A stretch of 64,000 nucleotides of DNA from positions 37,386,001 to 37,450,000 of the forward strand of contig CM114271.1 of assembly GCA_050084515.1 (NCBI GenBank), given 5' to 3'. Shown in pieces: positions 8,138-43,721 of this stretch. The DNA comes from Blasia pusilla. Taxonomy: Eukaryota. The notes under the pieces are model-generated. The model was given only the letters and a program-made list of their open reading frames with translations, was not told the DNA's origin and did not search any database. How positions within the stretch are numbered: position 1 is the stretch's first letter; every line of letters starts with the position of its first letter. The position numbers and the translations under genes were made by a program.

Positions 8138-10088
8138 CATAAGAAAAACACGAGGGAGCAGGGAATTCGTTGTTTGCAGGTGAGAAAGCGAGTCGCCTCA
8201 ATGGGGAGTCCCTAGATATGCTCGTTGACATGTTTGTTGTTTTTCTCCATCCGAAGGGTCGTATGGGGAAGTGCTGCTCAAATTTTCACGGGTAGCGGAC
8301 TAGAGTAGAGCAACAACAAAATGGCGGACAGGGTGCTCGGGTGTAGCACGTCTCGTGGAGAACAGCGGGAATGTCGGGAGAGAGAGGAGGTTGGGACGAG
8401 TTAGGAGAGCAGAGGGGGCCGATTCGCGTGGCCGCCAAGTGTCACACAGAGGGATTCTGGTGGATAGGGCGCTTAGGGACGCGCATCAGGGGAAGGCGGT
8501 CACGGAAGGCGCGAGGAAGGAAGGGGGTCGCAGCTCCATAGGGATTCGTGCCATGCCGAACGCCGTGTGGCATGTCCATAGGGCGACGTGCCCATAGGAG
8601 TTATAAGGGCTCCCAGGCCGCGGCAAGGCAAGGCTCCAAGGAACCAGGAGGTGCGGATGGTATAAGGTAGGAGGAAGGTGCTCCAAAGAAAGTGGGACAC
8701 CTACATAGGGCGCCGCGCATAGTTGGGGACCGGGTGAGACAAGGGCCCGGAAGGTGTGAGGTGGGTTTGGGGGTAAGAGAGTAGAGTGAGGGTTGGCTGC
8801 ATAGGGACGCGAGCCGTTCCAGCTGAATGGAAGGTATTTCGAAGGAGGAAGAGCGATTGCGGACAGAGGGCCGAAGGAGAGAAGGTACGTGGGAAGAAAG
8901 GAGGGGCTCATGGCATAGGGGCGCGTGCCCAAATGCCAAGGGGCCACAGGGAGTTAGACGTTTTGACGAGCCGGGAGTGCATGAAGTAGGAAGGTGCCGC
9001 CCACTAGCGACGGAGAGAGGGCACAAAGTTGGGACGCCGGACATACATGGTAGGCAAGATACCTAGTTGAGCGGTCACTAGAAGGAATCCGCCCAATAGA
9101 CATTAGAAATTATAACTACATGTAATTGCAAAAGATTATTTATCACTAATAACTCTAATTTATAATTATCCAGATCTTAGTGTCAAAAGACTTGTTATTT
9201 GGGATATGTAGTTATTAATTGATACGTTATGATGATGATCTTGCTTGTTTGTGTTTAATGATGTGGATCCTAGTCATCTTGTGACGTGGAATTGAATGTA
9301 CAATACTTTATGATGACGTGGAAAAGGATATTCCTAGACACGTGGTATCTTTGCACTAAAGTTAGTTGTTATTTTGTGTCATATGAGTAAAGACAATACA
9401 TTTAGTTGTATAATATATTCACATATCTACTTATAAAAAGTTCAGGTGTCCATGTATAATATTTTGTTCCTTCTAGTGATATCTTTGCACTTACTTCCTA
9501 CGGATTTGATACTAGTTTTAGTTAATTATGGAATTGTGCTCTTGATAAATGTACTTCCTTTTCTTGATTGAAGTTGTAAAAAGTAACTAGAATGACCTTT
9601 GAATGAGTGTATGTAGTCGTAACAAATGACTAGGATGATTTTTTAAAGACTATATGTAGTTCTATATATAATACTAATCGTTGTACAATTGAATGTAGTT
9701 TTTCCCATACATTCAAAAGCATCACGTGCATCTTTATATCTACTATGAGACCTGAATTGTTTTCCTCCATACAATGATGAGATAATCCCAGAGGTTGAGA
9801 GAAATGCATGCACTTCCAATCACTCACAAATAAGGTGGTTTAATTGAAACATTGTTGACTTATCAGATAACTAAAACAGTAAGAACTCAAATCATTCAAT
9901 TGACTAAAGCCACAACACATATGAAGAAGAGGATTATATTGCCAAACTCCATAAGTAGACCAGAAAAAACTTATTGAAACATGAGAGAGAGATTATTCCA
10001 AAATATCTTCATATTATATAAAACACTCAAAAACTTCAAATACATTGCAAATTATGTTTATTAAAACAGAATCCTAGAAGACACTTCT

Positions 10089-10556
10089 TGTTGGATTCTC
10101 AACATCCACTTCTCTGAGCATCATTAATCTGATCGGCCCCCTTCTATGAGGAGAAGCCTAGATTGATGGTTCCGACTTAGACATCGAAGCAGTCATAGTA
10201 ATATGATGTAGGTGGTTTTTGGAGTAGCGTTACTAGGATTATCTAAACGTGTATTAATGCGCCGCGCGGGTCCGAGGGCGCAGCCCATGGCAAATTTGGT
10301 CTATTAATAGAAACAAAGAAAAATATGTTAAAAACCCTAGTTTCATGAGTAGTGAAATAGTCAGGAGCCGCAACAATAGTGTATTCTCGTATGTCGAGTT
10401 ATCTCCATGTTCAGGTTCCATCGAAGCTCTTCTATGAGCCACGGACGGACTAGGCCACTTTGTATCTTCAAGTTTTGTAAAGATTTCAATGATTTCGTCA
10501 CTTTCTGTTTTCTCACACTTCTACCATAGCTAAAACCGCAATGCAAAATATATTCA
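10089..10556 (+). mobile_element. Copia solo LTR nested in the CACTA element
   Basis: Begins TGTT and ends TTCA. Similar along its length to the 5' LTR at 40738-41297 (ggccccctt...gacttagacat...caacaatagt.tattct...tttgtatcttcaag). TSD not recognisable. Confidence 0.6.
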
Positions 10557-10568
10557 GTAGAACAAAAA

Positions 10569-13500
10569 CTAGGACGGAGGAGATGGGCACTTCTTCACAG
10601 CTTTCTCATACCAAAGCACTGAAGTATTGAGTACATGTTTCATGTGTATCTGTGGAGGATCATCTTGCATGTTTGGAAATGGTAGCGAGGCTCCTTGATC
10701 ATTCACAATGATAACATCCACCTTCACACATCCAAGAGGAATTTCCTTTCCATGGAAGAAGTCCCTACCCACTATCCCAAATATTCTTCCTAATCCCACA
10801 TGTAACCAACATTTTCGCCCCATTGCTAAGAATACCTCATCTCCCACTGCCAACTGCACAAAGAACACATATTTACTATCAAAATCACATAATTAATTTC
10901 TTTATCATTCACTTTCAAATAAATTTCAATGATTTTATTCTGTACCTTCATTATACTCCAACCATTTTGCGGAATGTTTGAAGAAACTGTAAGTACCGAC
11001 TTATTATCCATGTATTTCTACAATGAATAGAGATTAAAAAAATCAATCTTTTGATATCATTCTATAGTAGCTACGTATTGTCCCAATGTCCAAACTCAAA
11101 CAAAAAATCAACAAGGAAATATCAAAATACTCACAACATTTTTCTCTTTGCTCTTGAATCGTTGCGATCAATTTCTTCTTTGTCTTGCTTCCTCTTTGTA
11201 GGATCTTCAACATGCTCTCCAACTTTAGGAACTAGAATACTAGGTGGATGAATGTGGGTGCTTTCCATAGGATCAGAAAGCTCCTCTACAACGTCATCAA
11301 GGATTTTTACAAATACCTGTTTTGATGCGCCTACATCAGAAAGGATCTTGGTCTTCTCAACGTCTTCTATTATTTCTGGTAGAGCTTCTTGAGCTTGGCT
11401 AGAAGTGGGGAGAGGACTCACAAAAGTAGGCTTAATCTTTTGCCCTATTATACCAGCTGAGGAAGAGTCTACACATAAAGGTACCAAAGGGGGTTCAAAG
11501 ATAGGGTGCAAGGATGAGGTGGTTTTACTTGGATTAGTAGGTGGGGCACAAGAAGCTCCAACTTTGGTTAAGTGGATCAGCATGGCGATCATTTTCTCTA
11601 TGTAAGACTTGATCGCCATTAATTATATCTTTGTTGACTCACTTGCTTTATCAACAAGATCTAGTGTAGTGGTCAAGGTGGAGACCCCACTCAACAAGAT
11701 TAAAGAATTAAATTAGATCTCTGATTTCAGTAGGAACTATAATACTACAATAAATGAAATAGCTGAAATAAAAATAATTTAGAAAATAAACACTCTTCCA
11801 CATAGTTAAGTGATTTACCTTTGTTCTCATAGTTTGGAAGCTTGGATTAGGTTTTATTGTTCCCAAAGAGCCTTCAATGTCTTGCAATGAAGGACTCGGC
11901 CCCTGCTCTTTCTTCTACAAGATAGAGGAAAACCAAACTATCATAGAATGCAAGCAGAAAAACATGAAATAACAAAAAAAAGGACTTTACAACAATATTT
12001 TTAAGAGAAAAAGGCAATGAATGTAAAATATGGTTGTAAAAAATGTTTTATTTTACTTAACTAAACTCATCAAAACATTGTTGGCACCTACATGTTCATG
12101 CCTACCAAGAGGATTTGGGTTTTCCGCCTTGGATCTATTCACCTTAATGCGTACTGATCTTCCTTGTCTCATTGGAGATAACCAATACGCTTTTAAAGTC
12201 TCCCACAAACATGAGCTCACATATGGAGGAATGGGACAATGAGCCTCACCTCCTAGCTCCATCCATAGCCTCTTTAGGCGTACCCTCTCTCTTTTCATTA
12301 TCTCTTGCAATGAAAAGAGCCAAAAATTCTTAGAAAGTGCATTCCCCACATACTCATATCGGGAGTCAATCTCCCTACGAATAGTCTTCACGTCATGCTC
12401 TTGTTTCTTACTTACATCCAGTACACTAAGGTCAAGGTGGCATTGAACCAAGACCTTCACATCATCATGCCACGACGCCTTTCCTTCACAACCGTAAACA
12501 ATCTCACCATCTACCGTGACCTCAACAGTTAGCTTCAACCCTGCATGCTCTTGGACCTTGCTTGCTGCTTTCCAAATATAATACTCTTCCTTCCTTCGCA
12601 TTTGCTTGATAGATCAGGCTGCAAACAAATGTGTCACAGAGATTGAAAATTAGTCTAGAATGTCTTGCATATGTAAGATAGCTTCTAGTACACTCATCCA
12701 TATGGGAGCACTACTCAGTAAAAAAATTAGAATAATGAAGAAGATTTGGCACCTAACTCATGATCACTTACCAATAGGAGGTTGAGGGGTTGTCCACTCT
12801 TGTGCTTGTCGTATGGATTAGACATAGAACTTAGAGTTGGAGGGGGTGGGGGTGGGGGTGGGTAAAAGTTTGCTTGTGGGGGTGGCCCTCATGGGCTTGG
12901 AATTGATCCCATGGTTCCTATAGACTCCAAATTTTAGATTTCATAAGTATATTGATCATACTTAGAAGAATAGAAGCAATCCATAACTTTGTGCTCCAAT
13001 CTCCTTACTCAAAAAAAAGGTTGCGCACAATGAAAATACAACATTTAACGGAATATGAAAGGAAGTAGAGTCTAAGAAATACAGAGCATGGACAATCAGA
13101 TAATTAGAGTACTTCCTTTTTCTCACTTCTCACCGTTCATAGGAGGGTCCCATTGGGATTGCATTGGGTATTCATGGGGATACCCAAGCAGTGGCCACGG
13201 ATAAGCCCCCATAGGAGGAAGAACATAAGGGTTTTGAGACTCCTTTTTCTTTTCAATTGGACTCAAGTCTTATAAAATAAGAATATATATGTGACATAAA
13301 AGATTATTAGAAAGCATCCTTACATTTCAATAGTGGTCATTATAGATTGGAAATTAAAAGGGCATAATCATGGCACCCATATTGGAAAGATAAGGTTAAG
13401 ACTTACATATTGAAGTCCTTTCTTGCCACACTTTTTCAGTTTGAAGGGAGATTGCATTGGTGCTGTCAGGATTGGCATTGAGTCCTCTAGACTAGACTAC

Positions 13501-13670
13501 TCAAGGGTCACATCAAAGTCTGGATCTAACTCCAAGTCATCCCTCTCCATTTTGTCTCCAATATCATCATCGGAAAAAATCTCCATGTATTTTTTGGTTC
13601 GTTGCTCAAAGGTCAATCAAACCTCCGACGCTGATGATCCCACTCCCTCACTAGCATAACAGTTTGAGGC
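10569..13670 (-). pseudogene. CACTA accessory TnpA/Ptta-like multi-exon gene
   Basis: Spliced fragments on the minus strand. 12053-12601 (WHDDVKVLVQCHLDLS...MKRERVRLKRLW...CPIPPYVSSCLWETLKAYW) resembles plant Ptta/En/Spm transposase. The last exon 10569-10860 (FHGKEIPLGCVKVDVIIVNDQGASLPFP...VLW) resembles the TNP1/DUF8039-type C-terminal domain. The 5' limit is approximate. Confidence 0.65.
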
Positions 13671-14595
13671 ACTACGAGATATTAAAACAACAAGGCTATA
13701 AATACTCCTCAATGCCAACTCTAGTATCAACATTCCTAATACATAGTGAAATGACACACACATACAAAGGCACAACCTATCCCTATTACAACAACTACTA
13801 ACTCAAGTTTATATCAACTTCAAATCTCATATTAAGTTTAGAATAATCAATGGCTATCGAAGTATATTTTTCACTTTATGCAAGTAGAGGGAAAGATTTA
13901 GATAAGGAGAGGTTTAGGGTAGCAATACCATCGATTTGTGCCAAATCTATAGAACGCTTCCCTTACAAATGCATATCTCTCTTTATCTACTTATGATTAA
14001 TCGAGCAATACAACTTGAACTTTGAGCCCTTACGCATACACAATCATTCTCTGGAATTTAATTTGTGAGTAAGAATGCACGTCCCTTCCCCCCTCCCCCT
14101 CCCACCAACAATTATTGATCTCCACTTTGCTAATGTTGTCGGCCACTTGGCTAGTGGCTCACTTGAGATACAATGAGAGCACAAAATTGTATATAAGATT
14201 ACTTTTAAAAGAAAATCTATTTGACCAATCTCCTCAACCAACAAAAAGAGTTACCCTTTTCTTAGCAATAAGGAAAAATGTTTCATAATAGATCAAAGTT
14301 CAAATCATAAACAAATGAAACAAGAGCTTATAATCAAATATGAGAAAATCTAACACAACATGATCAAAATTCACAAAAGAAAGAAATTAAATGGGAGCTC
14401 AAAATCACAACCGAGGAAATGGTGAAAATTTTGAGTCAAGCTCTAATAGGGTTACCAACCAGCACTTCACATAGTTCTGAATGTGAATATAAAAAAAGTT
14501 TGATCGCATTATTGGCACATATTCTCGTGAAATAAAATATTCACAAGATTATAATGAAAATCATGACTCGGATTGGTAGAGAAATCTGGTCTCAC

Positions 14596-17460
14596 TCAAG
14601 AAGATGAATAAGTATCTGAGCCACTACTTTCTACCATCTCTTCTTCAAAGTATAAACTTGTGTCATTCCAAGGTACTTCTAAGTCTTTTACATGGGTACC
14701 ATTGTTGGTTACGTCAACAAATGTCATTAAGGCTTCTTCTCTAGATACAATACTTGCCCCAACTAATGACACTTTTGGCACTTGCAAGCTAGCTCGACTT
14801 GGCCCAAAAACCCTGAAAGATGGATCTTATCATTCGCTGAAAAATCAAAGCCTCCTCCTACCCTTCTAGATCTAGTTGGTTTCTGCATTACTACTTTCCA
14901 ACCTAGCTTTACTTCAACATATGCATAGAAAACCTACTCTATTTGACTTGGAAAGACAAGTGGCTTGTGATTTATTTGTACACATTTTGCGAAGTTGGCC
15001 AACTATAAACTATTATTATCAAAGATCATACTTGCATCTTGAGTACCCCAATTTGAGGAAACCCATTTTCCTCTCATGAGCACTACTGGATCCTCTAACA
15101 TCCCATAATCCAATACTAGGATATCTGTCAAATTTCCCACATAAGGATACTAAATTGATTGGTCAAAACCATTTGCATTTGGAGCCAAGAATACAGAGGC
15201 AATACCTGAATCATACGTTCTATAAGCACTACCCTCATCAACCCTGTAGTGATTTTCATATGCCCTCATCTTCTTATATGAAATATATGTACGAGAGGGA
15301 GGCACACTCAATTGTCATGATAAATCATCTACTTCCTTACCATCACGAATCCATTCCCTTATCTTACAACGTATTCATTCAGGAAATGGGACGTCACACG
15401 TAATCTCATCTCTATAGATTCTGCAGAAAAAAAAACCCGAGGCGTGTTATGAGGTGTTCACTTTCAAGGTAGAATCCTCACTTGGATTAAAACTTTCAAT
15501 AACTAGTTATAATATTAGAAAAATAGAAGATAAATACTATCAAAGAAAAACTTACTTAATCCAAGGTGTAAAAAATTTGGTATTCTGCAACACATAATGA
15601 TTTGGTATAGCAATAAGCTCAGCACTCAATTGATATTTAGAGCCAACACCCTCCAAGATCTCACCAATTACGCCTTCCTCCTCGGACGCATCCCATACTC
15701 TTGTGCTTGTGACTGAGCAATCATGCATATATTGTGTTATAAATCCAAGTGCCTCATCCATAATATATCTTTCGGCCATGCACCCTTCAGTTTGAGCGCG
15801 AGATCGCACATATCCTTTCAACACTCCCAAATATCTCTTGATAAGGTACATCCATCGACATGAAACATGACCACATATGCTGAGTTCCTCCACTAAATGG
15901 ACCATAAGATGAGTCATAATATCAAAAAATGATGGTAGAAAGTGGATCTCCACAAGGCATAAGGTTTGTGCCACGTCTTCTCTCAAGGAATTCAGACCAC
16001 TAGGATCCCAATTTTTAACGCAGAGACGTCAAAATATTTGTGACATGCGCATGATGGTCATACGAATTGGAACACTCATGAGATTCTGCAAACAATATGG
16101 GAGTAGTTGTTGCATGAAAATATAAAGATCGTGGGACTTCAAACATCCTAAATTTTTCCTTAACTTATGTTTTTGTAAGGCACTTGCATATTCGCTAGGG
16201 GCTTTTAAGGCTTGAACTCTTGCCATGAAGATTCTAGCCTCCTCTGGTGTCAACACATAATTTGCCTTGGGTTTCAACTTCACTCCTGCTCTATTGGGTT
16301 GAGATTGGAGCCACAAGTGTGGCATGATCCCTCTTACTTCCATGTCAACCCTCACCTTGGCTGAATCCTTTTTCTGAAGCACAAAGCTGGTTTTCAAGGT
16401 ATTGTCGGCCACGTTTTTCTCGCAATGCATCACATCTAGTGTGTGTCTGATCGACAAATCCTGAAAATGAACAATGTATTTTTAAGGTTGGTGTAACCAT
16501 ATGGAAAACAAAAACAGGAGAATGTAAATAGGCTCAAAGTTGTGAGGCCTGCCCCATAGTAGCTCACCTTCCAATAAGGTAGGTCAAATAGTACGCTCCT
16601 TTGTGCCACTCTATATACTTTGAATGGATCTAGGAGGGGTTGGTCACCCCTCCTTTTCCTGGTCATGGGACCCTCATCAATAGACCCGCAGCTGATGCTA
16701 AAACATCAGAGCTTGATACCCAACTTGGTGCCCCACGACATTTAGTCCTCAAGCTGAAATGACATGCCATTCGACTCCTATATGGGTGGTTCCTTTCCAC
16801 ATAGCGCCGATGACCTTGAAATATGGGCTTATGTAAGGGTTTAGAGTAATCTAAGTCCACATGTGGTCCACATATTGAACAAGCAAGCTTTCCTTTCGTG
16901 GCTTCACCAGAAACTACACCCAATCCTAGATAATCATTAATAGTCAAGATGACCATGGCTCTGAGAATGAAATGTTTATTAGGAAGTTGACTACTACTAT
17001 CATGAGCCAAAACACCGTTCCACAACATTCCTAACTCTTCCATGAGGGGAGCTAGATAGACATCTAATATGTAATTGACTCCTTGCCCAGAATTGTGAGG
17101 GCTAGCTGGAGGAAAAAATTCTTGGTACATAGCCAAGTCGGGAGATTATAATCGATCAAAACCACCGGCCTAGTTGACCAAACACTATTTTTATCACTAA
17201 ATGGATTCACCCCATCTAATGCTAATCCAAGCCGACAATTACGAGGCTCATGACAAAAATATGGCCACAACTCATCTATTTTCCTCCATTGTTTTGAATC
17301 CCTTGTATGCCTCACTTGTCCATTGCACTCTTATTACTGGTTGTCCAAGTCATTAACCCAACAATAGTCTTGCATCTATATATCCTCTTTAGCCTTGGAA
17401 TGATTGGAAAGTGTCTAAGAACTTTTTATGTTTGTCATTATTGTGTGACCATAGAACCTA
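14596..17460 (-). pseudogene. tnpD: CACTA TnpD/Tnp2 transposase (Transposase_21, DUF4218, DUF4216), frameshifted
   Basis: Hallmark peptides RHFPIIPRL, EPRNCRLGLALDGVNPF, DVYLAPLMEELGMLW, RHTLDVMHCEKNV, LKSHD and FLPSFFDIMTHLMVHLVEELSICGHVSCRWMY. GT-AG introns at 16461-16567 and 15421-15555. Confidence 0.95.
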
Positions 17461-18976
17461 TCTGCTGAAAAATACCACAACTAGATAGACACCCCATAAA
17501 CTATCGCGATTTGCTAACGGATAGTGCCTTGATAGTCACTTCGAACATGCATGGCTCATTCCTTTCTACAAGTACTATCTACACAAAGAACCAACTTAGT
17601 TTTCATATTTGGAAAACCAAAAGAAGAGAGGTTATATGAATGAAAGGATTGTTCTTATTGTCCAAGAAGACCCACTGGTGATATGGGACTTTGATTTGGA
17701 AAGTTTGCAATATTTGATTTGTACAAAACTGTAGCCAAAGTTTGCAATATCTGATCTGTTCATAACCGTAGCCAAAGTAAAGGTCATGTAAAGTGCACTG
17801 TCCCAAGCAGTGGTCCTTAGCCATTACATAGATGTAAGTATTTAGCAATTAGAAGTAGTTTGAGTAGCTATGAATATCAGTCATTCTACGGATAGCTTCC
17901 TCGAAGTGAAGGAATGCGAGTATAATAATGTCACGATGAATGCAAATGAAAAGATAATGCTTTCCATCACCACGCATTTTGGAACTACAATGTCTATGTA
18001 GAGGGATGTTTAATGATACCTCTTGATGGAATAAATGAACGAATAAATATTTTCTTATCCATGGGTGACTCACGTAGTCACAAGTACTCATTAAGTATCG
18101 TCTGTCAAAGCCTTGCGACCATAGATCATTCTGCCATTCCCACAAGCACAACTGATAAGCCATTTGAAAAAATCTAGTGGAGATGGTAGAAGGTTTCCAT
18201 AATCAGGCGAACCCATCCAAATCTTCAAGGCCATGGAATTCTGAAGCAAAAAGATCTGTGAGGGCAGATCCACACCCAAAAATATGTGTGCGAGCCAAGA
18301 TCAATCCCATATGCACATCTTTAGCGATCCGTGTCCAAATAAGTGGAATGACCCACTCAAACTCTCACACCTGAAAGCTTCAATAGCCTCCATTGAAATC
18401 AAGAATTTGTTCAATTACATTGAAATTCCACTCAGGAAATCACCGAATTCCATAACAGCAAAGACCAACAAACAAATAGACATTTTTGAATCATCATCAC
18501 TACCACAACCGCGATAGAGATATTCGTAGGGAGGCCACCTTGTATCAAACTAACAACAAAGTCCAAGTCTAAAAAATAGGGAGTGGTGTGAAAGAAAAGA
18601 GAGATTTTTGAAATCACACCGGTGGAACTTCAGTAAGGAAATGGGCAGACCATTCATGCACTGATGGATGCGGAGCCAAAGAGTGGTAGGTTTTCACTCT
18701 AATAGCAAAGGGAGTCCAACATCCATGAATTTTTCTAGCTCCGGAAGTAGGAGCCAATCATGGACAGTGTTTTGGCAATCTGAAAAGAAGGAAGTGGTAG
18801 AAGTTTGGCATGGGAGATCAAGCAGAGACATGAAGCCAAGAGATGTCAGAGACATGAAGCTGAGAGATGTACAAAATCATTCGAAGCCGTGCTCGCCTTG
18901 AGCTTTCAATGTAATTGATGCAGATTATCGGAATGCCCGACCATTCTCCCAATCGAGCTTCAAGGACAAGCAAGTA

Positions 18977-18978
<2 letters not shown>

Positions 18979-19055
<77 letters not shown>
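18979..19055. repeat. (GA)n microsatellite
   Basis: Perfect AG run. Confidence 0.98.
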
Positions 19056-19060
<5 letters not shown>

Positions 19061-21820
19061 AAAGGAAAAGACAGAGCAGAGGGGTAGAGGGACAATACAA
19101 CGATGGTCTTGGCCACGTCCATGGGAAACTTTGATGTGCAAGGAAAACCCAAGAAACGCTCTCACCGGAAAGGTATGTGGATGGTGGAGGAGCTTTGGAT
19201 GATGCAAGCATTTTGCCGCAAAGTTTTCAAGCAACAAGCAAAGGGAGGGATCAAGGAGAAGCACAAATCTGTTCAAAAAAGGTGGAGATGGATAGAGGAC
19301 CAATGTTAGAAGCAAAGAGTGAAAAAGGAGTGTTTCTCAATGCCAGCTTCTCTTCCATACCATGCAAGACCCTCTCGAGAACTTCATTTTCCTCGGCCAT
19401 TGAATTAGAAGAAGATAGCTACTGCAACAACGAAACATGGAAGATGTTTGAATGGATTGGAAGAGTAAGCCAAAGTTTTCGCTCAAGAGACCTGAAAGCT
19501 ACAACAGGGAAATTGAACACCCTCTCTCTCGTAGATCTCACGCTATTTGCTCCAAACTACTCAGACTCCCGAAATGAATATAAAGAACATATACAACGGG
19601 TAATACAAGTACAATGCAAGGAGCCCTGCCGTCTCTATGAAAGTAGCTCTAAAGCTCCGGTTGGAAGATGTGCTCTCGCGAATGAGTGATTCGATTGAAA
19701 GGTTTCTAGATGTTGAGGTCTCTACTTGAACATAAGACTTTCAACAGGGAAGCAAAAGTCATAGGAGTCATCCATCAAGGATTTATTTCCGATACGCTTG
19801 GCTTGAAACCACCGTGCCTCAAGTTGTTTCACCGTACTACAATGGAACAACGTCATATAATAATACATGTGGACTGTCAAAATTTAGTGAGATGCTGGTG
19901 GGTCACTATGGGATGTGCAAAAATGGGCAAAACAAAGTTTCAGGTTAACCGAGCCCCATGGTCAATTCTACAATTGTAAAACTGTTCCACTCACGAAGCG
20001 CTAAAGGGGAGTTGGGGACGGATCGACGAGTTCTAGAAATTGAGCTACATGAGGGTGAGGCTTACCTATCTTTCATATCGATGAAGCTCTCGATAAATTA
20101 AGAGAGTTTTGAATCGCCAAAACGAGGCTTTCTTTCCACAAAAATCACAACATTTAGGGAAAGATACTTAGTTTCACAATTAACTTTTCATCTTTAGGTT
20201 TTTCTTAACAATAAGATTGATGTTTACTGTCTCCCTCTAGGTCATCTCTTGATCACGTTTGATGGTTCCTCTCAAAGTAATACTAATTTAAAAGTGATAT
20301 GTGGCTGCTAATGATACTTCAGTCATTGGAATCTCCCAGGAATCCATCTAGACCCACCTCGGAAAAATCAACGAGGGAGAGCTAGCTCTTATTGCAGTAA
20401 TGAGGAAATTACAAAACAAACCATAGGATTTTTAAGCTTAATCAGATGGGTGACTGAGTAATTCTCAACACAGGGACATGAGTACATAGAAAAATAAACA
20501 AAGGGGACCGACATCCACATCCACATGCTTCACCTTCACCCAAATCATTTTCAAATTGATACATGCAATTGAAGCTTCCCAAACCGATCGGCGCAGGTGT
20601 TTTGTTGGCCAAAACATGCTTTGCCATAAAGCAATGAATCCGATTCACACGTGGGGATCTCGTCCAATAAGAGTCGACGCAGATAGCAGTGTGCACATAG
20701 ACACTCAATATACCAAGGAAGTTACGTAGCTTCATCTTTTCTTCAACCAAGAACATCTCGACATCGATTCAAAAGGTAACGATTATGAGAAGTCAATTCC
20801 ACCCAATTAGCCATCGTACGGGCAAGTGGGATCTGACAGCAAGAAGAAATATAAACTACCCCCTAATTTTCACGAAGACTAGTTTCTTTCTCTGCGAGAC
20901 TCCTATGGAAAGAAAAATTTACGCTCAATCAAATCTGGCACTATCCTATTCGATACGCCTGCACTCTTGAGAGGAGGTGGAATTGGCGAGTTACTTCATT
21001 GTCTATTGTGCGGAGCAAAAATACTAGCGGGAATGGAGAGGGCGGAGATGAAGAAGTTAAGGGAACGAGCTAGGAGTTATAAGTATCTCAATGATGAAAA
21101 TGACTATGTTGTGTAAGTAGTCAGTCCCGTGACTAAGAGATCGAACAGGAAACGTCGCCGATTAGACTCTTGGAAGGTGTGCGATTAGGCAAGCAGCAAT
21201 ACGATTGGTTCTTCAAGCTGGAGCTAGAGATTAGGGAGTGACTTAATTGAGTTGAAATGATATGAATCGACACTAAGGATGCAATTTGCATGACGTATAT
21301 TTCTTGATAAATCAATCCGTAGTCACTCACATGAAGTTAGGTTAGGTTCGACTTTAAGAGATGTTGCTGCATTAAGAGAAAGCATCTCTTAATGCAAAAA
21401 TAACACACGTCGACGACGACAACGATGACTACACACAACTTAAGCTCAACGAACCCTAAATGCAAGAATCTCACTAGAGACACACTTACCCTTGGATGAT
21501 ATCGATACGAATCCTCACGATTTGCCTCAAGGGTGAACTTGGCATTGCATCCAATTCGTTGGCAATGCTAATTTTTGGAACCTTTGCACTCCGTCACAAA
21601 AATGACACTCCTCCAAGTCTACTACACATCCGAAGATTCTTGCCCTTTGCACGATGCATCAAAATGGAAACCGCATAGTTCGCCAACCTTCTCCGCATGT
21701 GACCTCTTAGGACTCTGCTCGATCTCTCTCCACTCTTATGCAAGCGGCAATTCTTGATTCTTGTACGACCTTCGCATGAGCCGGTCCCTCCTTGCCCTTC
21801 AAAATCCAGCTCTCGTAGAT

Positions 21821-21941
<121 letters not shown>

Positions 21942-23395
21942 GGCCATAGTTTCCTTCCTAACGTAGAGAGCTCAGTTGATCAAAACCTAATGCTCTTGCT
22001 AGATGGTGTCCTCAAGAAATTTATCAAGAAACCTCTGTTCAACCTAGAGTACGCGCTTACAGCGAGAAACAAGCTCCAAGAGTTTAAGAAAGTACCGAGA
22101 GGATTTGGAATGAGAGTTTCGAGAAAATGATGTGGCATAATTTTCCAACTTGGCAATAGTTTTAATATAGCAACTATACTTTTAACTACATCAAATTATT
22201 TCAAATACTACTAGTCGTAGTCTAGTTTTATTTTCAAATGGCATCTTGTGGATTAAATTTTAATTAAAATTGATTTACCATAAATACCACGTCTTAGTTA
22301 TTTTGCACTAATATAGTAATTTTTAATGACATGTCATTAGTTAATAATAATTACATTAATTTGTTTTATTAAAAAAAAATCGTGTCATACCCTCTAGTCA
22401 TTCTTAATAACTGACTAATACTAAATTATGCCACATATGACTACTTAGTTATATGTAGTGGTGTTTTAGTCTTATTGGACTCTAGTTATAAGTGGCTTAG
22501 TGCTAAAAACACCATATTCTTTCTAGAAGGTGACTGTGGTTGACGTGGGTAATGTGGTAAGAACATGGTTGAGGCCATCGCGCAAGGATAGAACCAGACG
22601 AGATGAGGCGTGTAGACCTACGTGGTTAGGAGCAGAGATGCAAAATTTGGGCTACCTTGTTGGCTTGTAGGAGAGATTGTCATGACTTGATTTTGGCAGA
22701 CATGCTAGGATTTGCGGCGAGGGTTGTGAGGGAGATATAGGCGCCGATGCTAACGGAAGGTTTGACGTGTTGTTCGAGGAGAGTGTCGAGCTACGGAGGT
22801 TGCCATATCACATGGAAGAGTGAGTGTTGACAATTCAGTAGGTTGGAGGGCTTGACCAAATTACCCATTTGAGTCCCTTTTCCCAAACTTATCTTGTGTG
22901 ATTGAGAGTGTTGGGTATCAGATAGTTGTTGGTGTTAGATGGGTGTAGCGATGGTGATGAGTGTAGACCCCTTTCATGTGAAGCATGTTGGTGGACATAC
23001 GGCGGTTGCCGAGTAGGGGTCGTGTGTATGACCCGAGAGAGTCAGTAGTTTAGGTGAGTTAGTTGGGAGGCTCATGGAAGCCCGAGTGTTGAGTGTGCGT
23101 GAGGCCAGGTGTGTCATCACGAGATTGGCATTAGCGCGTGTGAGGAGTATGGTAGACTCTTAGTGAGTTTGAGTGCTTGAGCACGTGAGACAAGGTTGTC
23201 ATCACGACGTTCTTCTAGGGTTCAAAAGAATGGGGTAGTACGAGCAGTGGTAGTGGAGTGACATGGAGTGGTGTAAGATATCGAGGGGTTTCGAATGAGG
23301 AACCACCCCCACTCCCATCAGTGGCTAGATCGTCATTACTAGACAGTGGGTCACGTGATAAGATCACAGACGGGGATGGTGATACGAGGAGAGAG

Positions 23396-25730
23396 ATGGA
23401 TCACATGGGCCACTGAAACATACGTCGTCTTTTGGGTGCGGTAGGCACCATAGATCTTGATGATTTTATCTAGGAGTTTGACACATGGTGCGACTTCTGG
23501 GAGATACAGACCCCTACGCGGTTCAACCGTTTTATGGCATGGAAGGGGTTGTTCTTGCACTTGGAGGGTCTGCGAATGGATGATTATATGGAGTTCCAAT
23601 CTCTATACTCTGTAGAGATAGATACCTTGAGGGTGTATTGGGCTCCAGGGTATGTGTCCACTAGTGGCCGCGAGGCGTATGGTGGGATAGTGAGAGCGGA
23701 GAGACCTTCACCATAAGCCCGGGGACTAGATGGAGAGGATGGCAGTGAGAGTGGTGAAGTGGCAGAGACCTCTCGTGGTAGAGGACCATCGAGTTCCAGT
23801 CCTACAATGGAGTTCTTCCGACAGTTGAAGAGGAGCTACTAAGGCGTGCGGACCGACAAGCTGAAGAGTCTACAGGATTTTCAACGGAGATCGGGTGAGA
23901 GTTTGAGGGAGACATTTACGCGCATGCGACACTTGATCATTACCACATATAGGGTTATTGAGGCACGATTAGTACAGTATTGGTACAGGGTGTTGGACGA
24001 GGAGCTATAGAGGAGAGTTTGGGATGCGATGTTGCTTCACACGGTGAAGCCCACATTGAAGGTGATCTTCCATTTTTCTGAGCGGATAGAGCTCAATATG
24101 AGTGAGGAGCACGTGGTGACCACGGGATTGGATGGGTTGACGAGTAGGAGTAGATCCACAGGTGTCCCAACATGCACCAATACCACAGAAGCGGGCCGAT
24201 GGGCCCAAAGAGCAAGGGGGTATCATGAGCCGATGAGGCAATCGCCCGTACCGATATATGTTTCCCAACAGGGACAAGGGTTGGCTTGTTGGATGTGTGG
24301 TGAATCACATAGGCAGAGGGACTGCCCACAACATGGGAGAGGGCCAAAGGCGCCTCCGATTGCTCAAAAGCCCCATCATAGTTGCAATGTGATGATTATC
24401 ATGGATATGGTCATACTAGAGATAGGTGTTTTGATCTTTGTCGAGAGGTACGTCCAAAGGGAGGCAGAGGACTTGGAGGCAAGAGAGTTGGTGGAGATCG
24501 AGTGGTGGATGATCGGGATGATAGAGTGCCATCAGCAGTCATAGGAGATGGAGGACGAGCACCCGATGTAGCGCTCCTTATGCGCATCGATCAATTAGAG
24601 CAGAGGATTGCTGCCATGATGATTATGCAGCTAAAGGAAGGCCAGGAGATGAGATTAGCTAGTGTGGTGCCAACCTCCACATCTTACCACAATGCTGGTG
24701 AGGATTCTGCGGGGATGGGATTTATGTGTAGTGTGGCTCAAGATGAGGCTGCTGTGGTAGGGACTCGGGATGTTGTGAGAGTAACCAAGCCATCGAGAGA
24801 TGGGGTTGAGATTGACCCACATGAGGGGACCAATGGACCGCATGCTAGGGTTTCTCAGTCGTTCATATTATCGGAGTTACTTCATGCATCGTCGATGGTG
24901 CCTCAACGACCTGTAGTGCCCACGGATGAGGCAAGTGCGTTGATGTCACAAGGAGTTGGAGAGACGACTCCTATGCCACCTCAGGTGTAGCCAGTGTTGA
25001 CCACGTTGTTGGATGTGGCCACTAGGATGAGTCAGACTCCGTTGTTTTCTGCCATGGAGTTGGCAACGTTAGGAGTTGGATCAGCGGAGGTGTTTTGATT
25101 GGCCGCCACGTTGTGTGAGCGTGGAGAGGTGATTTCCTCTCGTACAAAGGTAGTTCATGAGGTGGTACGGGGACTTGCCCTCAGAGCAGGTGCTCGGGAC
25201 GTCCCCCCACTCAGTCATGGCATGTTGCGGCGGCAAAGTTGGTAGATATGCCGGCTAGGCCAGCGATAAAGCGAGCCATGATCACACCCGGTGTGGTGTT
25301 GTTGGATAACCAAGAAGGAATGTTTCGCTTGGTTAGTCCCACAAGTACGATGTACCATCCGCATCGCGTCCTACTTGATTCGGGGGTGCAACCCTTGATG
25401 CTAGGGAAGGCAAAGTGTTTGGCGTTGGGATTATGGAAAGGCGACATCGAGCATTGTCCCTTTTAGATACAGACCTCTATGGGGGGTGTATCACCCACGT
25501 AGTACATGACTTGACAAGAGTTGGTGGGTAGATTCCAGCCAGAGCATGAGTCGGATAGTGCGATGGTGCACACTCGGGTGATTACGACATTGGCAAAGTT
25601 GTATGATGTGTTGGTAGGGAGTACGGTGTTGTATCCCCTTGGTTTTAGCTTGGATTTTTGGGAGGAGACAGTTTCTTATCAACCACCGTGGCGATCAAGT
25701 GATGGGCGGGTGAGCGATCTACCAGTGTAG
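23396..25730 (+). pseudogene. gag (two CCHC-type knuckles) plus aspartic protease, copy 1
   Basis: MAWKGLFLHLEG..MDDYMEF; KLKSLQDFQRRSGESLRE; CWMCGESHRQRDC; QCDDYHGYGHTRDRC; protease VLLDSGVQPLMLG (about 25368-25406) and YDVLVGS. Several stops and frameshifts. Confidence 0.9.
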
Positions 25731-26003
25731 TTTGTAGGGGGTAGTGATGGTTGATCACATGAGCATACGGCGACCGCGTTGGGAGCATTCACAGGTGATG
25801 TTAGAGGATCAGGAGGGTACAGGGTGAGGAGCACACATGCAGAGGACATTCCCGTAGCGGATAATCCCACAGAGAGACATGATAGGGTGGGTGTCTCTTC
25901 CCATGATGCGGAGCTTCGTTATTATTTTTTGGGATAAGCGTTGAGATGCGTGGAGTGCAGACGAGCTCGTGAGGCATGCGTGGAGCCGTGTCTATGTTTG
26001 AAG

Positions 26004-26115
26004 GAGGGTACGAGAGTGTTAGATCTCTTTGGAGGGATTAACATGGCGGGTTGCTGTAGTGTGGCAGTGTTGTAGGGATAATGGCACCGATGGTGCTAGA
26101 TATATATATGATAGT
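26004..26115 (+). pseudogene. N-terminal remnant of C5-DNA methyltransferase (motifs I-II), copy 1
   Basis: EGTRVLDLFGGINM followed, after a frameshift, by VAVVWQ...RYIYD. This is the SAM-binding motif I (VLDLFxGxG) and aligns with copy 3 VRVLDLLKGINIG...QYLHVEQD. Confidence 0.7.
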
Positions 26116-26186
26116 AGATCATGTTGGGTATATAGGTGCTTACTATCTAGAGTTAGGGGGACCCAACTACCAACTAGGGGGGCGGT

Positions 26187-26938
26187 TGTGGGATCTCGAT
26201 GTATATGCGGTGAGTGTATTTTGTTTATGTGTGGATCTACCCGTATGTTGGGAAAGATTGGTGTTGTGTGGTGTGTAGATGTGAACAACGATGTAGGTTT
26301 TGTAGCAATGTGTATGCGCACGACAACTGTCACATCTTATTTTGACATAGATAGAGTTCTATCGCATCGACGACATAGAGAGTGGCTGTTTGGGTGTAAC
26401 TTCGTTATGAGATGTCGGATGAGGTTGACGATAGGTCTGTTATGTCGAGAACGTCATTTATGGTGATTTTTCCTATTTTGGTTTTAGTGCGTCAGGTGAT
26501 CCATTGATCAAGTCAACGGTCATCCGATAACTTGTGCACGTAGGTTACCCTTGGTAGGGCTGTTTTTGGGGGAAGAGCCTTTTGGCTCTTTCTAAGGGTA
26601 TAAGAGTGAGGAAGATGGCTTTCCCAAGCCATCTTTCTCATATTGAGCCTTAGGAGCGCCTCTCTTGCGTAGACGTGTGTGGGTGTGTAGGAGTTAGGAT
26701 GCTAGCATTAGCGGAGGGTGGATCTGGTTCGATATGCCGATGTAGATTCATGAGTGGAGTTTCAGGTCGGGTGAGCCGTTTTTACTACTCATATTTTAGT
26801 CGTGGGATCTTGGTGTATATGCATGAGTATATTTCGTTTATGTGTGGATCTATCCGTATGTTGGGAAAGATCGATGTTGTGTGGTGTGTAGATGTGACCA
26901 ACGATATGGATTGTGTACCGATGTGTATGCGCATGACA
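26187..26938 (+). repeat. 3' split direct repeats B1 (26187-26325), AC spacer, A2 (26328-26798), B2 (26801-26938)
   Basis: B1 and B2 are direct repeats of about 139 bp ((t/c)gtgggatct...gtgtggatcta.ccgtatgttgggaaagat...atgtgtatgcgca(c/t)gaca). The sequence between them matches A1. Confidence 0.9.
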
Positions 26939-26942
26939 CATT

Positions 26943-29550: not shown

Positions 29551-32500
29551 ATGGCGATGAGTCTCGCAAGAGCTGTGCCTGCAGTGGTGAGTGGTGGCGG
29601 CCAATGGCAGGACGTGGATCAAGGGAGAGGATGCGGGGAAGGGACGGTTGCATGCAGCTGTAGTGCTTGGGGAGCGAGGGCGTTTCACAAATCTGGTAAT
29701 GGAGAGGTGGCAAAATTAGGGATTCCCAGCACCAATTTCACCTGGACAAGGGGAGTTGTTTATCATGGTTCAGCTTACAGCAAGCGCCGGGCACAACTAC
29801 CGCTCAGGGAAGGGGGATCTCGGGGCCCCGTCTGCTTGACGCGTGGGGTGAATGGTGCCTTCTGGGAAGGTGCGGATAGTGAGAGTACTGCAAATGTCCA
29901 CTTCACTTCCGCAGACGCATTTTATGAGAAGGTATGATTTGTGCGCAAAAGGCAGTGACCTGTGTCAGCGCTCAGCTATGAGATATTGAATGAACGACCC
30001 GTGGAGGGAATCATTGAGGCTGAAAGTCGCTCTGTTCCTTTTGTTTCTTAACTGTCTCGTGGATTTGGTGAATGGCTTGGAAGTTGCGGGTTTGGCAAGA
30101 TTTTGAAAGCTCACGCTGTTGTTGGCTAAGTGTGGAGTTCCGATTTCTATGTGAATTTTCTTCTGGATGGGTTTTCTAGCGCCTCTTTACCTTTACCTTT
30201 ATTTCGTATTATTTGGGGACTGTACTTGGGATTTCTAAGGATTGCACGAGAGAAGGTTGGAATCCATGTAGTGGACTTTTAATCAAGAAGTTTGGAACCC
30301 TCCTTAATGTGGACCGAGGGGTTCCAACTTAGGGGATTGTCAAATGATATTCTTTCGTCGCATGACTAGCTTTGTTGGCGGATTTATGTCTACCTCGGAT
30401 GTGAACGTTATCCTCGGGATTGTTTCGATGTTGGATTAAACTTACTTGGAACATTATTGGGACAAACTAGGGAATCTCCCGAACTATTCTGCTCATCGCT
30501 GACCTTGGTTGAACACTGTGGTTGGCACTACAGTCTGTTAGCTCACGAATCCTCAAAAAGAGGTCTCATCTCACCTGCTTAAAATGGGTTCACGCCCATT
30601 TTGTCTTTCGGACACACACCTTCTAATTGTGTGTTGCCATGTGCTGGACAACCATGGGTTCCAACTTTGGGATGGGAATATCATGCAATGGTAGCAAGTC
30701 TCTCAGTTTAAATTCTCAAAATGCCTACATTTAGGATATACTCCAGGTAAATGCTCATGGTCGCCTCATGCATAGTTTTTCCAGGTGAGTATTATATGAT
30801 ATCTCAAGACATCAAATGCTGGAATTGATTTTCCATCTAAACGTCATCCAGAGTCATAGAGGGAATTCTTGATTCTGGAGTCGTGATATTTGTTGGTCGA
30901 ATGTGGAAGTTGCCAGTCTCTCTATGATTGGGTGATATCCAATTTAGCCACTTGGATGTAAATAATGATGCATCTACCATTCTTCAGAACTGTACACCAC
31001 TAGTTCAACAAAATCACAGGTTCATAGTTCTGTTGGGTTGGTCAAGAGTTTTCCCCAAGTATAATCACCAAGAAACCTCATTGGAACTCAAATCTGAGAG
31101 CAGAGAATGTTTCACTCTATTTCTTTGTCCTTGGTGAAATATGATCAAACTTTTGTAGTCACATAAAATGACTGCTGAACTATGTGGTTTGCAAAACAAA
31201 AGGCCATGTCTGGAAAACTCTAATGTGTAGCAGTGAGGACTGGGTGGCAGTTTCCTTTTATCATATTTTTATCTTGTCTCCAAATCTCTAGTTCTTCATT
31301 ATGCTATAATGAGCTCTTACCCTATTTAAATTGACACCACAGAATTTCTACAATTGAATCCTATATTACAGTTGTCTTCCAGGTGAGAAGTTTAGCTTCA
31401 TGCTGATGTTGGATGCAATATTGTGAACTGAAGGTATATCTTTTCATGAAGATGACTGGTAGATTTTGAGAGTCACTCGAAAGCTTGAATGGTCTTAATA
31501 ATATGCAATTTTTGTCATCAAATTCAAAAAAAATCTGGCCATGATTCTGTATAACTTTCACTTTAAGAACTATTTGTTGGATATCAGTGTGAAACATGCA
31601 CATATCTCAGTGTGAATCATGCGCATATCTCAGCGTGAATCTCGAGCTGAGATCTAGGCTTTACCGCACAATGCTTCCACATGTTTTGGTCTGAATGTTC
31701 TGAACCCTGATCAAGGTTTAATCTCTTCATATGTTTCCACTTGGGTCATGCTCTGTACAGGATACCTCTTCACACTTGGTAGTCCTCATGACATACACTT
31801 ATTGTAGTCAACTGTGGAAATAATGGAATGAACTGATCAATGTTTCTAACCATCTGGTGGAGGTGTGTGTCCCGTAGGATTTTTTTTCCACAACCTCATT
31901 GGATGTTTCTTACATTTCTTATTGGTCTGGTGATTTGCAGAAAGAGCAGTCCGTACTTCTGAGTTTGATCCAAGAAATTGAGCCCTTGGATTTGAGTACA
32001 ATAAGCAAAGATGCATCCTCAGATAGTACTGGAGCAATGAAGAGAACGATATCTGGAATGCTGGGACTCCTTCCATCAGACCAGTTCCAAGTGTCTATTG
32101 AGACTACTCCGGACCATCTTGCACGCTTACTTGTGTCCTCTATGATGACTGGGTAAGTTTGTAATTTATGCCCAATTTAAGAGAAGTTTGTTTCCACATT
32201 TCTTCCTACTGTTTGTATTGAGTTTGCCTCTTCACAAATGTGTACACGGAAGAGTTCACATGTCAGATTTGTACTGCACTCAAGGCAGTTGTCCTGGGGA
32301 TCACCTGGTTAATGAGAAGAGTAGGCTCTATGTAGACAACATTTGAAGCTTTTTGTCAGTTGGAGTCAAACTTTTCGAGACATTATGTTAGCACTTGCTG
32401 CGCTCATATTTTTCTCAGCCACTCTCTACGGAATTGAGAATTATCCAATTATATTAGTTTTTCTATCAAAAACTTTATGCTTGTTCCATGCAAGAAATTG

Positions 32501-34376
32501 TGTAGTGTCATGGATCCCATTTTTCTCAGCCTTATTCTCATTTATCAGTAAAAGTGTTATGTGAATAATGTTCCCTCTTGTGTTGGCAAAGCATGCATGT
32601 TCGTCTTGCGAGTTGTATTTGTTGACAAGCACCAGTTGTTTGCCTTGGGCAATTTAAGTGCCACTGGATGCATTTTGGCAACTTGGAATGAGATTTGGAT
32701 GAGAATTGATCATAGTGTTAGTTGAGTCGATGTATTACAAGATGAGACTCTCTTTCATTGATGTAAGTTCAAGATTAGAGCATAAGAGCACACCTTGCTC
32801 CAGTAGCATGTGAATCAGTCTAATTTGACAGGGTTTTGGATCGCAGGTATACATTACGCAATGCAGAATACCGACTTTGCTTGCAAAGAAGCTTGGATCT
32901 TGCTGATGAAGGTATCAGTGATTCAGATATTTGCAAAAGGCATGGACAAGATGTTGCACATCTTAATGTCCGTGAGCCTAAAGGAACAAGTATACCTCTT
33001 GAACAGATTGAGGTTGTAGATGATCTAGGAGCTATCGAGCAAACCCTCCTCCCAGCTGAACTTGGCCCAGTATCTTCAGAGGTGGCCAACTACATTCAAC
33101 AACTACAGGAAAAGCTTTCAGCTACTTCAAAGGCAAGCTGCTACTATAGCCTCGAGTTTAAGAGGGTTCCTAGGAGAGTGTATTTTGACCATGGGATAAT
33201 AATTGTATCAGTGTCCAGTATCAATATCTAGTCATTAGCTCACATTGGTAAAGCATTACTCTGTTCATCAATTCCTATTGGCATAAGAGATGCCAGAGAT
33301 GGCTCATTATTGGTGATACTTGTTTACACAAGTTGTTGAGACTTGAAGCTAGTCTTTGAAGTAATTTTGTGAAGACCCCAGAATGTGGAGAAACTGCCTG
33401 GATCATGACACTTACTGGCCTGTCATTCATCCAGGAACTTGAAGAATGCAAGAACGCAGTTTCATCATTGGAGATTGTGAAGCAGGAGAAGAATGACTTG
33501 CTCGACTATCTGAGGTCCCTGGAACCTGAGAAGGTCTATCTCAGATTCATTCATATTCCTTAGGATCCTTTTACATTATCGTTTCCTGCGCATTCGGGTG
33601 CAGGAAAAAGTTGATCCACTTTCATAGGAGCAAGTTGCTTTTTGGGGTTGAAGTCAATCATTAATCTGGGAGCTTTATTCTGTGAACAGGTAGCAGAACT
33701 CTCACAGCCTTCACCGGAGGTCCACGAAGTAGTTGAGCACATTGTGGCTGGACTACTTGGAACCATGATTCCAAAACCTTCTCAAGTACCACCATTCACA
33801 ACGAGTTCAGTGGCAAGTCCTTGGGAAGAGTGTCGAACCTCAGAAGTTGTCGAGAAAGTCCCACTGCAGTTCCAGTCAACCGTCACATCATCCCGGGATT
33901 ATTTGGCACGACTGCTGTTCTGGTGCGTACTCAGCTCTCTCCTACTAACCAGACCAGGAGATCTAACGTTGACTTGCACGTTGTTTCTAGTTACTGTGAC
34001 CCCGAGGGCTTTGCAGGTTGTCACCTCTGGCTTCCAAGATCGAGTTTTGCGTGGTTCCATCTTTAACTGGTAAGGATTCTCTTTGTTGCCAGAGGGATAC
34101 GGAGGTGGCGGATCCTGCTTCAAATATACTCTTCTTTTGCAAGGGTCATAGATCATCAGGAGATTGGTCCAGACCCTCATCATCTTGACACTTAATGGTG
34201 ATTGTGTGGGGGTCATTTTTAGAAACATCTAATCATGTGAACTGGGCATGGACAGGTGTACGCTGTTGGGTTATCACATGAGAGGGTTGGAGTACCGACT
34301 CGAGCTTAGCCGGACACTTAGCCTTTCTGGAGAAGATGTACTTAATGTAGAAGAGGATACACACGACTGTCAGTGA
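29551..34376 (+). CDS. DUF760 family protein (Arabidopsis At2g14910/At5g14970-like), about 443 aa, likely plastid-targeted; exons 29551-29931, 31941-32152, 32847-33132, 33435-33533, 33690-33922, 34256-34376
   Basis: Conserved blocks LIQEIEPLD, AMKRTISGMLGLLPSDQFQV, LLVSSMMTGYTLRNAEYRLCL, EKNDLLDYLRSLEPEKVAELS and RDYLARLLFWCTLLGYHMRGLEYRLEL. All splice phases are compatible (1332 nt). The start codon of exon 1 is the least certain part. Confidence 0.92.
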
Positions 34377-43400: not shown

Positions 43401-43721
43401 TTTTTTGGCTCAATCAGATTTTTTCCGAGGGGAAATAAATCCAAACCCAAACCATTTTGTGATAGACTTAGGATGGTTACAAAAACATGTGTTTTACTAA
43501 ACTATTTCTTCAATTTTCCTCACTTACCTGAAGCACAAAGATATTCTTTTGAGTAGAAGTTTACACTTCCTTCAAAATTCTTTGTGGTTCATCCCTTCTC
43601 CACTCATGGAGTTACAAATGAAACTATCTCTTCTTTTCTTGTATCAACACCAAAAAGAAACCCACTTGTCATCTTCTAAGTATGGACATTTCGATAAGAT
43701 AACACTTGAATCTTAGGCATT

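Follow-up and report, generated by a model that had tools for sequence, protein, structure and literature searches.

Anatomy of the split-repeat element

The stretch of DNA analysed here, called the window, comprises 64,000 nucleotides (nt) of Blasia pusilla (assembly GCA_050084515.1, contig CM114271.1, positions 37,386,001 to 37,450,000 of the forward strand). Its main subject is a retroelement at 7552–26938, copy 1, in which two kinds of direct repeat, A and B, stand in the order A1 ... polypurine tract-B1-AC-A2-B2, as seen in self-comparison of the window and by direct reading. These split repeats had been reported in a preliminary description made from the letters alone, and every feature given there was found again at its position. 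The features of copy 1 are listed below in window coordinates.

7548–7551, plus strand: CATT, 5' copy of the target-site duplication, identical to 26939–26942 (direct reading)
7552–8137, plus strand: A1, the 5' repeat, starting with TATC, a decayed TGTC (self-blast, alignment)
8137–8150, plus strand: primer-binding site for self-priming, decayed (compared by eye with 44205–44218 of copy 2)
8138–8276, plus strand: first part of the leader, common to copy 2 (44232–44349)
8300–22750, strand not applicable: about 14.5 kilobases (kb) of foreign DNA in the leader, with no counterpart in copy 2
15555–17330, minus strand: remnant of a CACTA-type transposase (Transposase_21 and DUF4218; Pfam) inside the leader
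23423–25874, plus strand: gag, zinc-knuckle region and aspartic protease in three shifted frames (tblastn)
26176–26184, plus strand: polypurine or G-run tract AGGGGGGCG, directly 5' of B1
26185–26325, plus strand: B1, ending in CACGACA (self-blast)
26322–26331, plus strand: internal palindromic joint GACA-AC-TGTC (GACA at 26322–26325, TGTC at 26328–26331, spacer of 2 base pairs (bp))
26328–26798, plus strand: A2, between B1 and B2, with a TATA box at 26599–26604
26799–26938, plus strand: B2, abutting the end of A2 directly and ending in GACA (26935–26938)
26939–26942, plus strand: CATT, 3' copy of the target-site duplication (direct reading)

A second copy on the same strand, copy 2, is repeatedly used for comparison.

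43722–44202, plus strand: A of copy 2, starting with TGTC, 73–77% identical to A1 and A2
about 43999 and 44030–44043, plus strand: TATA box and self-primer sequence, respectively, in the A of copy 2 (sequence reading)
44205–44218, plus strand: ACATGAGAAAGATG, primer-binding site of copy 2, complementary to 44030–44043 at all 14 nt
45608–47703, plus strand: gag-protease of copy 2 (tblastn; residues 1–202 and 396–875 of the Marchantia protein P0005)

In blast comparisons within the window B1 and B2 were 87% identical over 141 nt (E 1.6e-42), and A1 matched A2 at 83% over 378 nt and at 79% over a further 112 nt. A blastn search across the window with B1 at word size 7 returned only B1, B2 and a piece of 41 nt resembling the end of B at 1895–1935, and no B was found next to either 5' A. 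Both plus-strand copies open with A alone, at 7552 and 43722, and A leads into a shared leader that is not B. At the 3' end of copy 1 the G-rich tract abuts B1 and is followed by B1-AC-A2-B2. The half-sites at the B1/A2 joint correspond to the outer ends of the elements (TATC at 7552, TGTC at 43722, GACA at 26935–26938), and the half-sites are conserved across the four families of elements treated below.

The coding region of copy 1 matches residues 12–805 of P0005 by tblastn. Methylase, reverse transcriptase (RT), RNase H and integrase are all missing, and the polypurine tract comes after gag-protease. The homology of copy 1 and copy 2 ends at 8276 and picks up again at 22753 in self-blast. 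Pfam was run on 246 of the 248 window open reading frames (ORFs) of 70 amino acids or more, and no match to RT, integrase, recombinase or protease was obtained in these 246; the assignment to a lineage is from homology search only. The element had been called protease-encoding, and this stands by homology to gag-protease-methylase proteins of liverworts, but not by a Pfam match for any window ORF.

Lineage, repeat order and insertion enzyme of the relatives

Relatives were collected in two ways. Firstly, the copy 2 ORF at 46177–47097 (P0001, 307 amino acids), which has a DSGA motif and a C-terminal end reading ...RVLLDSGAQPLMLG / ...LLDSGAQPLMLG, aligns along its length to proteins of the liverworts Calypogeia and Marchantia (13 matches, 36–47% identity, best E 5e-62). 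These are fusions of gag, zinc knuckle, protease and C5 methylase, with PF00145 in 4 of the 8 scanned, and one protein, P0007, extends past the methylase into the start of a Gypsy-type RT. A query with the methylase-RT stretch gave 49 relatives, among them the Closterium protein P0035; the integrase domain rve (PF00665) was listed in 20 of the 49, usually together with RVT_1, RT_RNaseH and Integrase_H2C2. Secondly, one scan of metagenome contigs with an alignment of gag-protease-methylase yielded 80 loci, which fall mainly into two families, C (mostly 52–73% identical to P0005) and D (about 30–34%). Loci L040, L047, L065, L066, L072, L073 and L079 lie between or apart from these two, and L027 represents a further family.

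Among proteins of solved structure, the methylase has its best relatives in DNMT3A/B/C. PF00145 was present in the Marchantia relatives and in L046 and L061, and within the window only in a piece of a minus-strand copy (2916–3194). The Pfam cut-offs for aspartyl proteases were passed by the relatives P0026, P0027 and P0037, and RT, RNase H and integrase were found in one frame in L046 (RVT_1, RT_RNaseH_2, Integrase_H2C2, rve) and in P0023. Because the rve-bearing, Gypsy-type relatives carry a DNMT3-like methylase, we assign the window element to the streptophyte "Gypsy-DNMT3" elements. Judged by this homology, 7552–26938 is an old, decayed and non-autonomous copy, restricted to gag and protease, of a streptophyte Ty3/Gypsy lineage with a DNMT3-like methylase. 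Beyond gag and protease, autonomous members of the lineage encode a DNMT3-like cytosine methylase, RT and RNase H, together with a DDE integrase and a PHD finger. In sequencing runs of the source organism, contigs of other copies cross the same internal deletion as copy 1 (X1 record 1), and the window copy therefore belongs to an amplified non-autonomous subfamily.

Three side observations concern the coding parts. The PHD finger lies at the C-terminus of the integrase (L046, 13841–14998; P0031). Two domain orders were met, protease-methylase-RT-RNase H-integrase in the Marchantia and L046 type, and RT-RNase H-methylase-integrase in P0031. Loci L007 and L024 have kept gag-protease-methylase, have lost RT and integrase and have one B at the end, which makes them a second kind of non-autonomous derivative.

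The order of repeats was followed by running A and B queries taken from L008 and L046 against all loci, and loci with shared flanks were merged. All 25 distinct 5' ends among the 80 loci showed A without an upstream B, the same as in the two window copies. Complete 3' ends were found for 19 distinct insertions, of which 11 read B-A-B and 8 had B alone. None of the 80 related loci had ordinary paired long terminal repeats (LTRs) with the same repeat at both ends, the finding that would have made the locus a special case, and A...B-A-B, seen once in the window, is borne out as a rule. The 19 do not include L001, L017/L042 and L027, in which B-A is followed by the end of the contig, and the 25 do not include the partial 5' A of L005, L020 and L041. 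Loci that appeared to have no repeats in the first pass (L030, L062, L065, L067/L068, L079 and L053) turned out to have B-only ends when searched specifically for B and A; L027, also without repeats in the first pass, is cut by its contig end. The latter locus reads polypurine tract-B-GACA-GT-TGTC-A, and it stands for a third family beside C and D, or a fourth with the window's own.

The source organism was checked in four sequencing runs, which shared 5–9% of words with the window and contained from 715 to 7601 contig pieces at least 80% alike. Contigs of other copies, 80–95% alike, bridge B1|A2 (X1 records 4 and 5; X2 records 10–12), and a contig of another copy bridges A2|B2 (X1 record 6). 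Joints in the run contigs that skip about 605–649 nt reflect ambiguous placement of B1 and B2 and were not counted as B-only copies. It is hardly credible that the window shows a one-off rearrangement, whether by nesting of a solo LTR or by duplication of B on the spot around a normal 3' LTR, since the single 3' end of this subfamily in the window, which would allow for it, has to be set against 11 distinct insertions of two other families with the same layout, against L027 with polypurine tract-B-GACA-NN-TGTC-A before its contig end, against the source-organism contigs of other copies across both joints, and against a duplication that borders A1 and B2, not A2. The inserted form in the lineage is A-leader-body-polypurine tract-B-A-B.

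Split-repeat elements of the DIRS order rely on a tyrosine recombinase, are not known to duplicate their target and generally lack a protease. PAT, Ngaro and TOC-like elements of this order resemble the present one in the layout A1 ... B1-A2-B2 and in having an internal B|A joint equivalent to the outer ends when joined, and the layout matches the description of the order, which is given in the same wording for SymbioDIRS-Dnmt3 (PMC5890265). A DIRS-order element, whose closed circular complementary DNA (cDNA) would be inserted at B|A by a tyrosine recombinase, is nevertheless very improbable. Locus L046, with A1 at 6379–6668 and B1-A2-B2 at 15048–15693, has between its repeats a frame that runs from DNMT and RVT_1 through RNase H, Integrase_H2C2 and rve to PHD and stops 50 nt short of B1; L061 combines split repeats with rve (Pfam), and L008 combines them with an integrase match (tblastn). 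A DIRS-like repeat order and Gypsy domains occur together in all three, and in L046 rve and Integrase_H2C2 share the frame of the RT. The tyrosine recombinase domain PF00589 was found neither in window ORFs of at least 70 amino acids, nor in the listed domains of the 49 relatives, nor in the 22 ORFs scanned of the 29 of at least 70 amino acids in the L046 element.

The traces of insertion point the same way. Perfect 4-bp target duplications flank 6 of the 9 distinct elements with two ends (CATT, AAGG, TACA, GGTC, TTGA and TTTT), with about 0.04 expected by chance, and two of these elements, L030 and L062, are B-only copies. The outer ends are TGTC...GACA, of the TG...CA type already recognised in the preliminary description; the CATT duplication is an addition to it. 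Such ends and 4-bp duplications are characteristic of insertion by a DDE integrase and not by a tyrosine recombinase. At the B1|A2 joint a constant spacer of 2 nt (AC, GC, AT or GT) stands between CACGACA and TGTCA, and we take CACGACA-NN-TGTCA for integrase sites because it is common to four families whose A and B otherwise differ. Gag and protease, together with the polypurine tract and the self-priming site, are likewise of the LTR-element type, and the RT, RNase H and integrase belong to Gypsy-type Pfam families, in difference from the DIRS order. The choice between integrase and recombinase, which had been left to be checked in autonomous copies, falls to the integrase: the relatives encode rve, leave 4-bp duplications and have no tyrosine recombinase in the scans above, and with rve and target duplications the element therefore stands outside the DIRS order.

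Priming sites and the route from cDNA to insertion

The borders of A and B coincide with probable priming sites. A G-run directly precedes B in 21 of 23 3' ends (the window and 22 loci). No primer site of the transfer RNA type (TGG...) was found after A1 in the A/leader border sequences examined. Instead, the A/leader border opens with 10–16 nt exactly complementary to a site in A, 27–33 nt past a TATA box. The complement measures 14 nt in copy 2 and 15–16 nt in 7 of 8 family D loci, and 8 of 13 family C loci have at least 10 nt of it in this position. The self-priming sequences vary among three families, while their complementarity is kept. In A2 of copy 1 the corresponding sequence, CATCTTTCTCAT, stands at 26630–26641, 31 nt past the TATA box, and is predicted to be both the RNA start and the self-primer.

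It was also observed that a DNA palindrome closely follows the TATA box and has the predicted RNA start in its 3' arm (window A2, 26612–26641; family C, A 150–180). In family C the 5' arm of the palindrome near the TATA box repeats the sequence of the primer-binding site.

Minus-strand synthesis is predicted to be primed at the end of A by self-priming of the Tf1 type, and plus-strand synthesis should be primed at the G-run directly before B1. As B starts just past the polypurine tract and A ends at the self-priming site, the reverse-transcribed LTR should be B+A. The preliminary description had suggested such an LTR, primed at the polypurine tract, and its suggestion is strengthened by borders between polypurine tract and B, and between A and primer site, that are exact in three diverged families. 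The canonical product of reverse transcription would be B-A-body-B-A. Taken jointly, the lineage, the layout as a family rule, the integrase-type insertion and an LTR consisting of B+A are held with high confidence.

The inserted form is not this product, and how the one may be turned into the other can be read in part from the joints. At A2|B2 the end of A meets the start of B with no extra bases, apart from a 2-nt difference in L004 and L076/L078, and this looks like two cDNA ends joined. We propose that the cDNA ends would be joined head to tail, in a 2-LTR circle, in a concatemer or by an end-to-end template switch. Integrase would then cut the palindromic site CACGACA-NN-TGTCA inside the leader-proximal LTR. 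The cut would give a circularly permuted unit, A-body-B-A-B, to be inserted with processed CA ends and cohesive overhangs of 2 nt. In the inserted copy A2 would retain the R region needed for strand transfer in the next cycle, and B2 would serve as the right-hand integrase site. B-only copies (A-body-B) would be dead ends, produced by recombination of B1 with B2 or by cutting at both sites, and the window copy would have been mobilised in trans. B1 and B2 are not set apart as two lineages: a tree built from the B copies, with 14 of its 16 inner branches open, does not split them, and only one CpG column differs by majority. This is as expected if both derive from one template.

A two-LTR circle opened at GACA-ac-TGTC had been put forward for copy 1, and of this idea the half-sites and the B+A LTR have stood. 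Such a circle, if symmetric, could be cut at either of two identical sites, and 5' ends of the form A-B-A-leader should then be about as frequent as the observed form. None was seen, and the route either has a direction or passes through another intermediate, for instance an end-to-end template switch at one end or bridging as in DIRS elements. The whole explanation, with Gypsy lineage, layout, integrase insertion and a permuted-unit mechanism, is in our judgement the best one and probably correct; the head-to-tail joint, taken as a single step, we favour only slightly.

The most serious competitor accepts the same Gypsy element and the same integrase and dispenses with a joint of cDNA ends. 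A transcript from A1 to B2 would be copied end to end, the tips would be rebuilt from B1|A2 by bridging in the DIRS style, and a linear A-body-B-A-B would be inserted. This accounts for the missing A-B-A 5' ends and requires no choice between two identical cut sites, and linear single-stranded cDNA intermediates have been reported for DIRS-1 (PMC7192593). However, bridging leaves unexplained why, in three families, A ends at the primer-binding site and B starts after the polypurine tract. With the primer site after A1 and the polypurine tract before B1, moreover, the canonical two-jump scheme cannot copy B2. The lack of position-specific lineages of B1 and B2 also speaks against it, a test that loses its force should the poly(A) site be close to where B2 begins. 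We regard bridging as unlikely, though well ahead of the two explanations dismissed above.

Several points weigh against the permuted-unit explanation that we prefer. The A-B-A-leader ends expected from a symmetric 2-LTR circle were seen at 0 of 25 distinct 5' ends and at 0 of 2 in the window. An extrachromosomal circle, concatemer or tandem-joint intermediate and the linear cDNA ends are things that we infer from inserted copies, and the circle put forward earlier is among them. RNA start, poly(A) site and priming are all predictions, the RNA start being placed from the TATA box. No G-run precedes B in L007, and L017 has only five G. In 5 of the 13 family C loci no complement of at least 10 nt lies at the expected place. 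The self-priming site of copy 1 is decayed, with 10 of 14 positions matching copy 2 in a hand count, and a script search gave no exact complement of at least 7 nt for it. The target duplication is missing in L061 and imperfect (3 of 4 positions) in L007 and L068, and the argument from the duplication of copy 1 is slightly weakened by CATT at the 5' flanks of both window copies. The case for the enzyme, finally, is drawn by homology from metagenome plant relatives and from liverwort and moss proteins, the window copies being devoid of RT and integrase.

Neighbouring features, known systems and meaning

The window is plant nuclear DNA, with the CACTA transposase remnant and pieces of a DUF760 gene within it. 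Copy 2 ends abruptly before the methylase, at residue 875 of P0005, and has no 3' repeats within the window. Two further pieces of related elements were found.

2268–5919, minus strand: third copy, degraded, with gag, methylase (2916–3194) and RT pieces (tblastn)
1813–1935, plus strand: B-like end of another subfamily, ending in GGACA, with unrelated flank beyond

The B-like end is 85% identical to the final 41 nt of B1, and at its start it agrees with a loose-end consensus from run X3. The piece probably represents the 3' tip of yet another related element, the fourth, at the window edge. The 5' flanks of both plus-strand copies read CATT (7548–7551 and 43718–43721), even though other elements have other duplications; coincidence (1 in 256) and a preference of the subfamily for certain targets are the two possible reasons. 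A foreign insert of about 100 nt within A1, at about 7655–7761, is missing from A2 and from the A of copy 2. A near-perfect hairpin, TTTTCGGCAATGTTATGTT / ACATAACATTGCCGAAAA, lies inside this insert, which is possibly a very small foldback element. The foreign DNA of the copy 1 leader contains two repeat arrays, at 18938–19112 and 21783–21983 and 2.8 kb apart, whose period is about 8 nt. Terminal inverted repeats of the nested CACTA element (15555–17330) were sought and none were found. Between the element copies two exon-like ORFs at 31878–34070 match the plant protein family DUF760, and they probably belong to a host gene.

The layout is less new than the preliminary description assumed when it spoke of an unusual hybrid. 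KnitGypsy-Dnmt3 of Klebsormidium nitens has already been given the same repeats together with Gypsy domains, a DIRS repeat structure with Gypsy domain composition according to the legend of Fig. 4c (de Mendoza et al. 2018, PMC5890265). It shares with the present lineage a Gypsy-type pol with a DNMT3-like methylase, a streptophyte host and the order A-coding-B-A-B with Gypsy domains. It differs from the window copy, which is without methylase, RT and integrase, and the likeness is drawn from the published description. The main text of PMC5890265 is silent on target duplications, on end sites and priming sites and on a mechanism, and that paper and its citation under the name "Gypsy-DNMT3" in a 2026 preprint are the only prior descriptions found. 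The window element is a new, decayed and non-autonomous member of the Gypsy-DNMT3 elements, and neither the anatomy of its junctions nor the evidence for its integrase was found in print.

Other known systems share single traits with it. In Tf1/sushi (Tcn1-like) Ty3/Gypsy elements, according to PMC6317226, self-priming is predicted for some plant lineages, the primer-binding site complementing the start of the element's own transcript and not a tRNA, as predicted here. Target duplications of 4–5 bp are reported for plant lineages, a range that includes the 4 bp seen here (PMC6317226). Those elements have two ordinary identical LTRs, in contrast to the split A/B repeats. Ordinary Ty3/Gypsy elements in general have an identical LTR at each end, and here A stands alone at the 5' end and B-A-B or B at the 3' end. 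Retroviral integrases are reported to cut the palindromic LTR-LTR joints of 2-LTR circles (PMC1180852, PMC1905944); there, as in the route proposed here, a DDE integrase cut at abutted end-sites restores insertable ends. The retroviral palindrome arises from the joined cDNA ends, in a side path. In the present lineage, on the other hand, the palindrome is built into the LTR, and what look like the joined cDNA ends (A|B) remain in the inserted copy.

In textbook LTR elements a linear cDNA is inserted, and its own tips are the integrase sites. In the lineage described here integrase sites, priming sites and repeats do not coincide, and the inserted copy shows the predicted product of reverse transcription in permuted order. 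Programs for finding LTRs look for two identical repeats bordered by a duplication; they would probably match A1 to A2, place B2 outside the element and fail at the duplication test. The family is abundant in bryophyte-like genomes, with thousands of contig pieces, and could be mis-annotated and mis-dated there.

Circle-junction integration was once proposed for retroviruses and later dropped in favour of a linear precursor. That an integrase-bearing LTR lineage of early land plants and their algal relatives replicates via a circularly permuted provirus, with sites inside the LTR and obligatory head-to-tail joining, is a tentative proposal to which we give somewhat less than an even chance. 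If it is true, the lineage would be a natural and obligatory case of circle-junction integration, which would also require that one of two identical sites is selected. Should the head-to-tail joint be a true intermediate, these elements would offer a natural system for the action of integrase on internal palindromes and for the fate of circular cDNA, and split direct repeats would be a solution of the end-replication problem that has evolved outside the tyrosine-recombinase elements.

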